Virus record (IMG/VR): IMGVR_UViG_3300027749_000427
Span: 1-26,994 of that record
Source: a virus
Lineage: Duplodnaviria > Caudoviricetes
DNA: 26,994 nt
Strand: one strand, 5' to 3'
In this document: in pieces, positions 11,128 to 18,814 of the stretch
How positions within the stretch are numbered: position 1 is the first letter of the stretch
How the letters are laid out: every line of letters begins with the position of its first letter
The notes under the pieces: generated by a model
The model's input: the letters and a program-made list of their open reading frames with translations, nothing else
What the model was told of the DNA's origin: nothing
Databases searched by the model: none
Translations under genes and position numbers: made by a program

Positions 11128-11150
11128 GTGGATTCCTTAGTTGGTTAATG

Positions 11151-11186
11151 ACGTGTGTATGGTAGCAAAAATTTATGGCGTGTCAA
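11151..11186 (-). promoter_or_regulatory. Sigma70-type late-operon promoter with downstream ACACACGT motif
   Basis: TTGACA (11186-11181), 16 nt spacer ending in TGC (extended -10), TACCAT (11164-11159), then ACACACGT. Confidence 0.75.
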
Positions 11187-11352
11187 GCGGTGGGGGGTGC
11201 TGGGACTGGGGAATGTATGTAGACGTATGTATATAGTAAAAAATTGGCCTTGTCGTGTGCGTAATGGGTAGAGTAGCGCCCCCCTCCGCGTGTCCGTGTC
11301 CCTCTCCCCTCCCCGTGCCTTTGTCTGGGCCTCATTGTCCGATTCATGCCGT

Positions 11353-11662
11353 TAGTGGAAGCTCCGCTATCCTGCACGAAATAATGCGAACAAGCGGGTA
11401 CTAAGTAGGTCACGCCGCCGAAGGGGTTTTAACATCCTAGAGGTGACCGGCAGCTGAGAGTACGCAAATAGTTGCACGCCAACAGGTCACGCTGGGCTGG
11501 GCATCATGTTGCACCCCTAGCTACTAGGGATAATGGATTGGTTTTCAATCCGCCTAAGTGTTCGTTCACTGGGTGCATAAGGGTTCGCCGCAAACCACAA
11601 TCATGCGGAGCGCCTAAAACAGGGGGCGCTGCTAATACCCTGTCGCTTATAGATTCAAGCCC
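11353..11662 (+). ncRNA. Candidate structured RNA / long leader of early operon
   Basis: No credible ORF; dense run of complementary stems including a cloverleaf (11510-11577) and an H-type pseudoknot (11609-11643). Strand is inferred from G-U pairs and the downstream gene. Confidence 0.5.
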
Positions 11663-11692
11663 CTATTCATTTATTTACTCAAAGGAAAAATC

Positions 11693-12205
11693 ATGGACAA
11701 AACAATCATTCTCAAGCGTATCGGTGCAATCGGTAAGGCATCTGCCAAACTGACTCAGGATATCCAATCTGTGGCTGTAGCGTGCGCTCTGCACGCTGTC
11801 GCTCATGGTGACGTTACCCTCGCCGACCAATTGGTAGACGCTGTAGGTAAATCCTTGCGCCGTGCATCACTGCGTGCATGGTTCGAAAAGCAAGCACCAA
11901 TGTACTTGCCCAAAGGCAAAGACAAATTCGCATTCGATGCACTGCGTGCCGAAGATATGCGTAAATTAACCACCGAAGAATTGGAAGCCAAATTCGATGC
12001 ACTGGCATGGGAAGATGCCAAGCCCGAAGCCCCTGTTATCAGCGTGTTCGATGTGTCCGATGCTGTGGACAAATTCATGAAGCGTATGGAATCAATGGTC
12101 AAAGACGCCAATGTGACTGTGCGCAACAAAGAATTGTTGGAGATACTCGGTCAACAAGTCTCTATCTACCACGCCGAAAAAGTGCTCAGCCAGAGCACTG
12201 AGTAA
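11693..12205 (+). CDS. First early gene, hypothetical helical protein
   Basis: 170 aa, strong RBS AAGGA; HAVAHGDVT...RRASLRAWF pattern recalls early proteins of lytic proteobacterial podophages. Confidence 0.8.
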   Translation: MDKTIILKRIGAIGKASAKLTQDIQSVAVACALHAVAHGDVTLADQLVDAVGKSLRRASLRAWFEKQAPMYLPKGKDKFAFDALRAEDMRKLTTEELEAKFDALAWEDAKPEAPVISVFDVSDAVDKFMKRMESMVKDANVTVRNKELLEILGQQVSIYHAEKVLSQSTE

Positions 12206-12211
12206 TCACTT

Positions 12212-12234
12212 AACCCCCAACCATATGGGGGTTT
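12212..12234 (+). terminator. Hairpin after first early gene (terminator or processing/stability site)
   Basis: AACCCCCA-ACCATA-TGGGGGTT, short U tail. Confidence 0.5.
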
Positions 12235-12271
12235 GAATCTATAAACGACTCACTCACTGAAAGGACTATCC

Positions 12272-12520: not shown

Positions 12521-12529
12521 CTTAGGAAA

Positions 12530-12830
12530 CGAATATTCCACTGAAAAGTGTCGGAATAAACTACAGAATAAACAAAAGTCCTTATAAATCATCCACTTAT
12601 AAGGGTATTATTCTAATATTCCAATATTCTTATGTAAATGGCTGCGCTCACATGAGCGCGTATGACGTGTGTATACACATGAAACGCCGTGCCGCATACA
12701 CACGTAATCATCAAAAGGTCTGTCTCTGCGTGAAAAACGTGGAATATTGGAATATTTGAATTTTCCCCTCGTAAGTATATGATTTGCAATACACTTCGAA
12801 TATTCCAGTGCGAGATGCTATAAGAATAAA
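12530..12830. repeat. Symmetric AT-rich repeat region, candidate replication origin
   Basis: 19/20 inverted repeat 12610-12629 / 12742-12761, inverted IHF-like boxes 12587-12599 / 12772-12784, CGAATATTCCA at 12530 and 12797, central palindromes. Confidence 0.6.
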
Positions 12831-15584: not shown

Positions 15585-16589
15585 ATGAGATATTCAGACA
15601 TACTCCAATCCTGCCTTGCCAACTTCGCCAAGGGTAACCAACTTGTACCCAACATCGAGGGCCGCCCGGGCGGCGGCAAGTCCACACTTGCACGGGAGAT
15701 CATCTCCCAGCTTGGCATCAGACCTGAGCGTATCACCGAGTTCAATCCATCATTGCGTGACCCCGTGGACATCATGGGTGTGCCTCGCACCGATGGCGAT
15801 GTAGCCAAGTGGATACCGATGCCTGAGTTCTATCGTATCCGTGACGATGGGACTGACGAGCCTTGTGCGCTAATCATCGAGGAGTTATCCGATGCGCCGA
15901 TGCCGATGCAAAATCCCATGTGCCGAGTTATCTTGGACAGACACGCGGGCGAATTGCAGTTGCACCGCAAGCTACACATCATTGCTTCAGGTAATCGTAC
16001 AGAGGACAAGTCTGGGGCTACCCGCATGAGTACCAAGCTAGGCAATCGTATGCAGACGCTGACCTTCGACGAGAATCTTGACGACTGGTGCTTGTGGGCA
16101 TTCGACAAGGGCATCGACCTAAAGATCATTCAGTTCCTGCGCTTCAAGCCAGCGTTGCTGTCTGACTTTGACCCCAATCGCAAGATCAACCCCACACCAC
16201 GTTCTTGGGCAATGGCTAACGATGTTGAGGAGACGCTGCCCACTGACTTGTACTTTGCCAATGTGGCTGGGTGCGTAGGCGAGGGTGCTGCTGCCGAGTA
16301 CACAGGGTTCAAGCGTATCTTCGAATCGTTACCCAACATAGATTCGCTGCTTATGAATCCAAGCAAGGCAGAGGTTCCTACTGACCCTGCGGTGCGCTAT
16401 GCGTTGGCTGGTGCAATCGCTCATCGTACTACCAAGGACAACTTTGACCGATGCATGGAGTTCATCGAGCGTATGCCATCTGACTTTCAGACTATGTACA
16501 TCATGGATGCGATGCGTCAGGATGCTTCGGTGCGCAACACCAAGGCGTATGTCAAGTGGACTGTGGCTAACGGCAATACTTATCTGTAA
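15585..16589 (+). CDS. MoxR-like (AAA_5) AAA+ ATPase
   Basis: Walker A GRPGGGKS, Walker B variant LIIEEL, sensor I ASGN, Arg finger LGNRM, sensor II PTPRSW. Confidence 0.88.
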   Translation: MRYSDILQSCLANFAKGNQLVPNIEGRPGGGKSTLAREIISQLGIRPERITEFNPSLRDPVDIMGVPRTDGDVAKWIPMPEFYRIRDDGTDEPCALIIEELSDAPMPMQNPMCRVILDRHAGELQLHRKLHIIASGNRTEDKSGATRMSTKLGNRMQTLTFDENLDDWCLWAFDKGIDLKIIQFLRFKPALLSDFDPNRKINPTPRSWAMANDVEETLPTDLYFANVAGCVGEGAAAEYTGFKRIFESLPNIDSLLMNPSKAEVPTDPAVRYALAGAIAHRTTKDNFDRCMEFIERMPSDFQTMYIMDAMRQDASVRNTKAYVKWTVANGNTYL

Positions 16590-16609
16590 CAACCAAGGAG
16601 AACATCATC

Positions 16610-17485
16610 ATGGAACTTAACGTCACCCCTCTCAATGCCAAAGCGATGCTGGTCAAGCTGACTGTGCGTAGGGCTAACCTATCACGGCGCGACACTGTGG
16701 CTGAATCGTTCGTGCAGAATCAACTGGACGACACATCCCTGATCGTGAGCAGCAAGCTGTTCCGCGACAAGTCCAACCCCATCAACCAGCTTATGACCAA
16801 GGTCAGCGAGGTATACACCAAGCACAAGGAGAACACACTACCCTACGTGGACAAGGGGCCGCGCATACTGCCGAACGTACAGTACTTCGATTACTCTAGC
16901 TTAATGCGTAGTGTCATTGCAGTGGTGGACAACATGAAGGCATTGCATATGCCTAACTACGACAAGTATGTGCAGCTTGATATCCAACAGCGCAGCATGG
17001 GCACTAACAGTAGGGCCACACTTGAAGACTACCCTACGGCGGAGGAGTTCGAATCCCGCATCGGGTTCGACTTGAGGTTCAGCCCGTTACCAGACGCCAG
17101 CCACTTCTTGTTCGATATCAGCGACGAGGACAAGTCAGCCTTCACCGACATGATGGCAACTGTCGAGCAGAGCGCACGCAACGAGACTATCAAGATGATG
17201 CTTGAGCCACTAGGTCACTTGGTAGAGAAACTGAACAAGCCCATTGGCACTGAGGGTTCTATCTTCCGTGAGTCTGCTATTGAGAACGTAATAGACAACA
17301 TCAACCGTGCCAAGAAGCTGAACGTGTCTGACGACCCTGAGATCACGACGATGATTAATACCTTGTCGTCCGCAGTGAACGTGTATACAGGCACTAACGT
17401 ACTACGCGAGTCGCCCATCGTGCGGGAGCAGGCTGCCAAGAAGTTAGATGAGATCGCACGTCAGATGGGAGCGCTGTACCGATGA
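16610..17485 (+). CDS. DUF3150-like helical protein
   Basis: 291 aa; TLPYxDKGPRILP, DYPTAEE and LNVSDDPE motifs; typical neighbour of phage AAA/VWA pairs. Confidence 0.6.
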   Translation: MELNVTPLNAKAMLVKLTVRRANLSRRDTVAESFVQNQLDDTSLIVSSKLFRDKSNPINQLMTKVSEVYTKHKENTLPYVDKGPRILPNVQYFDYSSLMRSVIAVVDNMKALHMPNYDKYVQLDIQQRSMGTNSRATLEDYPTAEEFESRIGFDLRFSPLPDASHFLFDISDEDKSAFTDMMATVEQSARNETIKMMLEPLGHLVEKLNKPIGTEGSIFRESAIENVIDNINRAKKLNVSDDPEITTMINTLSSAVNVYTGTNVLRESPIVREQAAKKLDEIARQMGALYR

Positions 17486-17703
17486 TTACTCTATCTGAGT
17501 TGGAACTGGTGCTGCTTATCGCAGTCACTGTCTTGGGCTTTGTTGTGTATTGGCAGTGGCGTGAGATGGAGGCAATGCGAGAGTTAGGGATACACCTGAT
17601 GGATGCCATGCGTGGTGTCGCTGACAATACATTGAGCATCAAGCGGGATGCGTCAGGCAACATTGAGGTTAACAAACTAAAGGAGAAACCAAATGGCAAT
17701 TAA
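17482..17703 (+). CDS. Small single-pass membrane protein
   Basis: LVLLIAVTVLGFVVYW hydrophobic segment; overlaps both neighbours. Confidence 0.7.
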   Translation: MITLSELELVLLIAVTVLGFVVYWQWREMEAMRELGIHLMDAMRGVADNTLSIKRDASGNIEVNKLKEKPNGN

Positions 17704-18814
17704 GAAGGCAAGTAACATGGACAAGGCGCGGTCACTGATCGTGCTTGACTATCCATTCGTGGCGAGCATCCTGCTTCGTCGTCCGTTCATTGAGACTAGG
17801 GAAGTGCCTACGCTGGCGGTAGATGGCAAGATGCGTATTTACTTCAACCCTGACTTCGTGGCTACGCTTACTGTGCAGCAGCTTGTGTGGGGCTTATGCC
17901 ATGAGGTGTTTCATATCGTAGGTCAGCACGCACTGCGTGTAGGTACACGTAACCACAAGAAGTGGAACTGGGCTGGTGATGCGTGGATTAACGATACGCT
18001 TGACGAGGCCAAGATGGGCGAGCGTATACCGGGCTGCGTAGATATGCCGGGCTCCAAGGATGACACTGTAGAGAATATCTACGACTCACTGCCTGACGAT
18101 GACGGTGGTGGTAGCGGTGGCCTTGGTAACGATGTCCACTTTACCGATGGCGTTGGTGATGGCAGCAAGCAGATGACCAAGGATGAGGTGCGTACTGTCA
18201 GTGGTGAGATCAAGGTGCAGATAGCCGAGGCTGCGCAGGCTGCCAAGATGCAGGGTAAGTTATCAGGCAGGCTGGCTGAGATCGTTGCAGAGGTGCTGGA
18301 TGTCAAGACACCTTGGTACGACATCGTTGAGAAGTATATGACTAGCTGTGTGCGGCAGGGTCAGTCATGGCGGCGTCCTAACAAGCGGTACACCGATGTG
18401 TACTTGCCCAGCGTAGATAAGCTACCACAGATGGGCGCACTTGTTGTGCAAGTTGATGTGTCTGGATCGGTGTCCAAGCGCGAGTTAGATTACTACAACG
18501 GTCACCTATCACGCATCATCGAGCAGACGCGACCTGAGAGCGTTCATGTTCTGTACACCGACACACAGGTTGTACGTCACGACGAGTTCGAGTGCGGCGA
18601 GGAGGTCAAGCTAGAGTTCTATTCGGGTGGTGGTACGCATATGCCAGCAGGGTTCGACTACTGCGCTGAGCATGGCATCGAGCCTGAGTTGTTCGTGTGC
18701 TTGACCGATGGCTACACCGACTTTGGCAATGACCCCGGCTATCCCGTGGTGTGGTGTATCAGCAGCGATGTTGTAGCCCCGCATGGCGAGAACGTACACT
18801 TTGAGATGGAGTAA
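17693..18814 (+). CDS. DUF2201-type putative metallopeptidase with VWA-like domain
   Basis: HEVFH (HExxH) zinc motif, G/D-rich linker, SWRRPNKR, MIDAS VDVSGS, GGGT, LTDGY. Confidence 0.88.
   Translation: MAIKKASNMDKARSLIVLDYPFVASILLRRPFIETREVPTLAVDGKMRIYFNPDFVATLTVQQLVWGLCHEVFHIVGQHALRVGTRNHKKWNWAGDAWINDTLDEAKMGERIPGCVDMPGSKDDTVENIYDSLPDDDGGGSGGLGNDVHFTDGVGDGSKQMTKDEVRTVSGEIKVQIAEAAQAAKMQGKLSGRLAEIVAEVLDVKTPWYDIVEKYMTSCVRQGQSWRRPNKRYTDVYLPSVDKLPQMGALVVQVDVSGSVSKRELDYYNGHLSRIIEQTRPESVHVLYTDTQVVRHDEFECGEEVKLEFYSGGGTHMPAGFDYCAEHGIEPELFVCLTDGYTDFGNDPGYPVVWCISSDVVAPHGENVHFEME

Follow-up and report, generated by a model that had tools for sequence, protein, structure and literature searches.

A conserved, pseudoknot-rich RNA motif ahead of the first early gene in a family of phages

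Described phage RNAs and the present locus

Few structured RNAs of phages have a known job. The put RNA of HK022 lies at the head of an early operon, where it is read by the host polymerase; the available part of its description (PMC9378689) gives it a compact tertiary fold of two stems with a triple helix, which acts near a pause. The roles of nut and N in lambda antitermination are covered in the available part of PMC4807359. The T4 gene 32 operator combines an H-type pseudoknot, an unstructured tract and the ribosome site (PMC3014915, in excerpt). GOLLD and ROOL are phage-borne non-coding RNAs with several pseudoknots, a variable periphery and a job that is still unknown; according to the portions available of two reports (10.1101/2024.12.08.627333; PMC5737381), they measure 581 to over 800 nt, contain multistem junctions and often lie near tRNAs. 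In T7, early RNase III sites lie between early genes, and R1.1 is an internal-loop hairpin of this kind that is cut by RNase III (PMC6121014, in the part available).

The window analysed here is a stretch of DNA of 26,994 nt. It is a phage fragment with two divergent arms: from 11127, the genes for terminase, portal, capsid and virion proteins are read to the left, and from 11693, those for early functions and replication (ATPase, Pol A, exonuclease, helicase) are read to the right. The RNA locus lies in the gap between these arms. Complete relatives of this phage measure 57–60 kb. A T7-type RNA polymerase was found in none of five related records, four of which are complete (positive control 2/2). 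An initial annotation, made from the letters alone, had placed a large, structured RNA just before the early genes begin, and this is supported by covariation across relatives. Its remark that the region holds no credible ORF also stands, as no frame is conserved and 306 of 430 indels relative to the relatives are not multiples of three; the frames overlapping the RNA encode 93 aa from a TTG (11472–11753, plus strand) and 76 aa from a GTG (11183–11413, minus strand). Sequence comparison shows the segment 11357–11642 to be a non-coding RNA motif of the plus strand that is conserved, has covarying helices and is predicted to form three pseudoknots. It displays deep covariation and holds a fixed place heading the early arm.

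The RNA resembles put in its position, heading the early genes of a phage and presumably read by the host polymerase, and in a putatively compact tertiary fold. However, it contains three predicted pseudoknots and has no sequence or model match to put, which is several times shorter than the ~290 nt found here. The order of pseudoknot, unstructured tract and ribosome site known from T4 gene 32 was seen in nine of 47 spacers between the RNA and the first early gene (gene 1), but the present RNA has two tandem pseudoknots, 220 nt of further structure and usually an intervening long stem, and gene 1 is not recognisable as a single-strand binding protein. As in GOLLD and ROOL, there are several (here predicted) pseudoknots and a variable periphery; these RNAs exceed 500 nt, whereas the present one strings small domains together and is linked to a single early gene, without an Rfam match and with no tRNA gene reported by ARAGORN. 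The long internal-loop hairpins, before and often after gene 1, are similar to the T7 early sites, although cleavage is a prediction here and three lineages have as their stem a long-range duplex by which gene 1 is looped out. Long-range duplex stems likewise loop out sequence in rRNA processing.

The covariance models of Rfam 15 gave no match at E ≤ 1 in the window, nor did the RNA of 14 relatives match any of them at E ≤ 5. Neither ARAGORN nor Rfam detected a tRNA or tmRNA at the locus. The Betaproteobacteria-1 model (RF02932) stayed below its cut-off in all five records searched (the window and four relatives), with a 15.9-bit match elsewhere only, and a blastn search of 50,697 phage records with the region returned only chance matches of 28 nt. 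Apart from the alignment supplements of Weinberg 2017 and part of Fremin 2023, which may hold parts of the motif, the literature searched gave no description; three supplements of PMC10690425, a source available in part, gave no match. The comparative evidence presents a family of structured phage RNAs that is real and undescribed, together with a correction to its fold and a candidate processing signal.

Covariation and the predicted fold

For the covariation analysis, 45 distinct sequences with a mean identity of 61% were aligned with MAFFT, blind to structure, and an APC-corrected G-test with a tree-based null was applied by our own R-scape-like script. The 14 top-ranked column pairs all base-pair (87–100% standard pairs), seven of them at E ≤ 0.05, and the first non-pairing column pair appears only at E = 1. 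The best pair, 11401–11460, has E < 0.025. In the 67-pair model, 81.6% of cells were paired, compared with 36–48% in slid controls, and 46 of the 67 pairs had changed on both sides; the model was drawn from the same sequences on which it was scored, so these values are not independent. Close relatives outside model building differ at no fewer than 12 positions in the RNA, among the differences listed over a 2-kb stretch, and these comprise three compensatory pairs (11484/11493, 11538/11548, 11614/11625), two helix-compatible single changes and four unpaired positions. The MAFFT alignment A5 misaligns the PK2 and 11515–29 helices (score 33–44%), both of which were assessed separately.

Over 44 well-aligned pairs, 69 G-U cells were counted against eight A-C cells, an excess that points to the plus strand and to the RNA level. 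The shuffle z-score of the folding energy was −0.21 on the plus strand and −1.39 on the minus strand, and the mean over 18 family members was −0.7 and −0.4, respectively. On the plus strand the energy is thus no better than that of shuffles, an outcome that the initial annotation had set against a structured RNA, along with a lack of structural conservation. The z-scores are uninformative for a pseudoknot-rich RNA, and structural conservation in the relatives is clearly present. When the ensemble of the window sequence is computed free of pseudoknots, several covarying helices have p < 0.05; the model would need stabilisation by pseudoknots, tertiary contacts or protein, or else ordered co-transcriptional folding.

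The predicted elements are listed in Table 1. Helix P1 of PK1 is 99.3% paired with all five pairs double-changed, while the 3-bp stem of PK1 is 100% paired with one double change, and more variants were seen by eye in L011, L017, L048 and L106. The hairpin within PK1 is presumably T-loop-like, and GUA/GAR in the P3 arm is what we take to be a loop-E-like motif. As P1, P3 and P6 abut without linkers, their coaxial stacking is likely. PK2 fits 25 of 26 distinct segments, compared with 11% of shuffles. All 35 distinct sequences with PK3 have a second stem of 4–6 bp, loop 3 is conserved, and the element is missing in seven divergent loci. A kissing interaction between two 6-nt loops was rejected as inconsistent by eye.

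Table 1. Predicted RNA elements and flanking features, in window coordinates
Feature	Position	Strand	Description
Promoter-like element	11334–11356	+	Abuts the conserved GGAAG start of the RNA; putative role
Conserved structured RNA	11357–11642	+	~290 nt; probable ends, from the limits of conservation
PK1, 5' pseudoknot	11357–11397	+	11357–59/11370–72; P1 11364–68/11393–97
PK1 loop 3 hairpin	11374–87	+	3 bp
P3 arm	11398–11463	+	P3 11398–401/11460–63; pairs 11408–09/11454–55; distal stem-loop variable
P6 arm	11464–11512	+	P6 11464–67/11509–12; conserved internal loop; P7 11473–75/11501–03
P6 arm, distal part	11464–11512	+	P8 11478–80/11495–97; P9 hairpin 11483–94
Three hairpins	11515–29, 11535–51, 11552–74	+	Covariation; other modules there in some clades
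PK2, H-type pseudoknot	11582–11608	+	11582–85/11593–96; 11588–92/11604–08; A/C-rich loop 3
PK3, H-type pseudoknot	11610–11642	+	11610–14/11625–29 near-invariant; 11620–24/11638–42 covarying
Duplex left arm	11642–11666	+	Predicted RNase III processing stem
Gene 1	11693–12205	+	170 aa, phrog_1448, mostly helical
Duplex right arm	12225–12249	+	Brackets gene 1 with 11642–66

This structure is unlike the fold drawn initially, in which the three pseudoknots and the duplex bracketing gene 1 were missed. All the stems listed there can be drawn in the sequence, including a long-range GGGCT/AGCCC read from the sequence alone, and AGGTCACGC does occur twice, at 11407 and 11484 (the chance expectation of a repeated 9-mer in 310 nt is ~0.2). 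Over 29 sequences, however, its four 5' stems are not conserved: TAGTGGA/TCCGCTA is 54.6% paired, CCTGC/GCGGG 66.9%, GGTCAC/GTGACC 57.5% and GCAGCT/AGTTGC 56.1%, and their double-changed pairs are no more numerous than in shuffles, 368 of 500 of which reach the same count. The stem set as a whole is 61.5% paired, without an excess of double changes. Further downstream, CCGCA/TGCGG is real and GCGCC/GGCGC is invariant, but each is half of a pseudoknot that had been overlooked, and the supposed cloverleaf at 11515–11574 consists of three hairpins and is not a tRNA. The two exclusive folds proposed for the copies of the repeat, which would compete for one partner, are not conserved either: the alternative pairing 11443–48/11485–90 is 40.5% paired in the 29 sequences, below all 500 shuffles. 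The second copy of AGGTCACGC forms a 3-bp hairpin with a variable 6-nt loop.

Distribution and boundaries of the RNA

Searches with gene 1 yielded 83 loci. After removal of 15 duplicates and of six loci whose flank was too short or whose match was weak, 62 distinct upstream regions remained, including the window's own contig. The conserved segment was present ahead of gene 1 in 50 of them: 46 match the window at E < 0.01 and four more are strong profile matches, while two regions are partial and ten gave no match. Two more copies were found in genome bins. A specific 3' pattern retrieved 16 viral contigs, all of them already known carriers of gene 1. The RNA was never met without gene 1 and is single-copy per genome (three of five genomes were matched by the 5' model).

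The 5'-half model R1 gave 45 matches in 73 sources, 26 of them to training sequences. It matched nothing in the left-end regions of RSB1, SnaP-R1, Pepon, Prado and VPv81, in the divergent clade of L029, L031, L067, L068, L071, L073, L074, L076 and L077, or in L007, L010, L014, L046 and L047, whose 5' modules are replaced. Apart from L076, the members of this clade (46–62% identity in the best segment) were observed to carry a different modular leader upstream of gene 1, which shares the promoter-like element and a GUAUAUCG-type motif, with PK3 in three members. Peripheral modules are inserted (up to ~90 nt) or swapped between clades, a tolerance that fits a folded scaffold. The RNA reaches ~350 nt in relatives. 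In L061 and L032, the 3' part of the RNA stands alone, joined to unrelated coding sequence; these are probably chimeric assemblies.

The promoter-like element occurs in one or two tandem copies in relatives, and its sequence varies by clade. No further copy was found in the window, G002 or G003 when up to 7 of 27 mismatches were allowed. No plus-strand sigma-70 match was found at the element, the spacing of which is unfit for sigma-70, and a GG-N10-GC spacing, presumably that of the sigma-54 consensus, fits just one clade. Near the locus, sigma-70 is best matched at 11186–11159 (minus strand, 10/12, extended −10), in a sequence that points into the terminase/structural arm, divergent from the RNA. 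One contig begins exactly at 11357, although a contig end does not define a start site. Four sequencing runs that we guessed to be RNA also cover the structural genes and may therefore be DNA. Among truncated contigs, 15 of 27 begin 316–574 nt before gene 1, which suggests a genome end in the divergent gap; G/C runs could also cause such contig starts. G002 and G003 have 127-nt repeats at their ends; these look like overlaps from assembly and therefore do not map the genome ends.

The 3' boundary was compared over 47 distinct spacers, of which 34 contain a local hairpin (16–24 bp), four a long-range duplex (23–24 bp, three lineages) and nine neither. The stem of these 38 spacers has the shape of an RNase III substrate (a duplex of about two turns or an internal-loop hairpin), where cleavage is predicted. 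In the window, the duplex spans 25 bp, with 24 of 25 positions pairable against 18 in the best of 200 shuffles (−36.6 kcal/mol), and it is kept in L001; L013 and L076 have equivalent gene-bracketing duplexes with sequences unrelated to the window's. As the duplex closes 560 nt later, it can act only after transcription. All nine stemless spacers, which represent two lineages, are accompanied by an intrinsic terminator after gene 1 and have PK3 ~31–38 nt from the start codon. Such a terminator was found by script in one of 36 testable stem-bearing loci, and also in L067. On a quick tree, the stemless state needs two changes and the duplex three, of which two are forced, so that few independent events are represented. 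In hairpin-type spacers, such as L024 352–430 and L067 325–392, a segment Y has two possible partners, X and a segment Z that lies next to the ribosome site. The competing 6-mers differ in sequence between the two clades by eye, and this competition is a possible conserved switch.

PK3 is also found in other phages. A looser pattern gave 94 viral matches: 19 with gene 1, 14 without it (those with a second stem of at least four Watson–Crick pairs) and 61 in neither class. All 13 inspected loci without gene 1 (ten of the 14, plus three with G-U pairs) directly follow a stop codon or tRNA-like gene, and eight of them closely precede a terminator. This recurrence in unrelated phages suggests that PK3 marks unit boundaries. 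The order in L158, L147, L143, L153, L142, L141, L190 and L199 is stop codon, PK3, a short CUCCU tract resembling an anti-Shine-Dalgarno sequence, and an intrinsic terminator. Matches to suhB/MmgR among these eight unrelated loci are weak (E 0.01–0.23), and the arrangement is a candidate phage small RNA. In L172, L185, L188, L195 and L200, which belong to unrelated phages, PK3 stands just after a tRNA-like gene or stop codon.

Possible functions and the surrounding genome

The explanation that we tentatively place ahead of the others is an early RNA, released by RNase III, which would bind a host protein in trans. The host polymerase would transcribe the RNA first on infection, with a start near 11357, and host RNase III would cut it off the message at the 3' stem. 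PK1 and PK2/PK3 could then protect the ends of the freed RNA, which as a stable molecule would bind a host protein as a decoy or inhibitor of defence or of a regulatory factor; the gene 1 product possibly acts together with it. The stem on the 3' side in most spacers and the location of both RNA ends in pseudoknots support such a release. Conversely, the stemless spacers with a terminator after gene 1 (9/47) suit a cis leader, and the invariable linkage to gene 1 also argues against a trans-acting RNA. As PK3 stands before a terminator in eight unrelated loci, the end that it caps may be the 5' end and not the 3' end. A more specific version, which we regard as rather doubtful, is a phage RNA weapon: the earliest transcript made after injection would be a modular, end-capped scaffold released by RNase III, whose exchangeable domains would each mimic or trap an RNA-binding protein of host defence or regulation, alone or in a complex with the gene 1 product.

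Two cis-acting roles compete with release and trans action. It is possible, if doubtful, that the nascent RNA binds the host RNA polymerase as an antiterminator and so takes it through the long early arm, either in the manner of put or in that of nut with gene 1 as an N-like factor. The RNA directly follows the promoter-like element, the related records searched lack a T7-type polymerase, and intrinsic terminators stand after gene 1 in two clades. The order of promoter, RNA, RNase III-like stem, first gene and terminator also resembles what we take to be the layout of the lambda pL leader. However, put is a two-stem RNA acting near a pause, whereas the present RNA spans ~290 nt and its modules can be swapped; a clear terminator after gene 1 is missing from most loci that have a stem, the window among them, and terminator-like sites in the early arm are not enriched over shuffles (16 against 13.2 ± 3.4). 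Alternatively, the RNA may be a translational leader of gene 1, in which the 3' pseudoknots recruit S1/30S as a standby site or nucleate autorepression by the gene 1 protein while the rest stabilises the message. We consider this unlikely, although the linkage and fixed spacing to gene 1 agree with it, as does the succession of pseudoknot, unstructured tract and Shine-Dalgarno in nine spacers; in the hairpin-type spacers, an upstream 6-mer and one near the ribosome site compete by eye for one strand. Precedents are T4 gene 32 (PMC3014915) and the tisB standby pseudoknot (PMC7708055), each as given in the available part of its source. Against a leader, 38 of 47 spacers have a stem that would let RNase III separate the RNA from the gene, and a 290-nt fold with three pseudoknots far exceeds the needs of known operators.

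The remaining explanations are all improbable. A two-state, riboswitch-like leader built on the AGGTCACGC repeat, as first suggested, draws on the alternative helix, which has p = 0.95 in the pseudoknot-free ensemble of the window and is kept pairable in close relatives, with two G-C pairs turned to G-U; its low pairing over the family, below every shuffle, and the lack of an Rfam riboswitch match make such a leader very hard to sustain. Slimmer still are the prospects of a self-cleaving or processing ribozyme in PK3 or PK1 that would define the transcript ends. The invariant first stem of PK3, its conserved loop 3 and its recurrence at gene boundaries of unrelated phages are compatible with catalysis; no Rfam ribozyme matched, ~30 nt is small, and the adjacent RNase III-like stem would be redundant. 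The least probable is a DNA-level structure at the genome end, serving as a packaging or entry signal. The locus is near the inferred genome end, but the plus-strand excess of G-U over A-C contradicts such a signal, and pseudoknots with A-rich loops are features of RNA.

The RNA, stem, gene 1 and terminator form a small clonable unit with which three mechanisms can be distinguished. Any outcome would be new, whether the RNA proves to be a decoy acting in trans, another RNA-only antiterminator that is much larger than the first, or a bacterial ribosome-loading leader made of pseudoknots in tandem. A first function might also emerge for phrog_1448, an early protein that is widespread, in many podoviruses, and carries no annotation, and for the 30-nt boundary pseudoknot common to unrelated phages.

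RSB1, Prado and similar phages have distant homologues of gene 1 (28–52% identity) close to their left ends, and relatives by predicted structure are found in LUZ24-like phages. The protein has no Pfam, PDB sequence, Foldseek or convincing VIA match that would offer a functional clue, and none of its Atlas neighbours carries a name. Elsewhere in the early arm, an ATPase gene (phrog_1297) is followed by a DUF2201 metallopeptidase/VWA gene with the PHROG label HNH endonuclease (window 15585–18814). After gene 2, a 44-nt inverted repeat and AATATT-type repeats were observed (window 12586–12785, also 12527–12810), and at the matching site L002 and L003 contain many copies of a different 18-nt repeat; window 12586–12785 looks like a replication origin with clade-specific iterons. 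A 21-nt inverted repeat at 11141–11161 and 12695–12715, 1.5 kb apart and kept in L001, flanks the RNA, gene 1 and gene 2. The relative G003 encodes a 2725-aa protein with an LPD23 match and a DarB-like C-terminal match (L113 4570–12747, minus strand). The relatives L106 and L105 lie inside a Fluviibacter sp. bin and a Pseudomonadota bin, respectively, which weakly hints at a betaproteobacterial host, with binning contamination being possible. On the packaging-arm side of L005 (1881–1987, minus strand), Rfam Atu_At1 matched above its gathering score (75.7 bits); this match is absent from the window, and similar sequence was seen by eye in L018 and L041.
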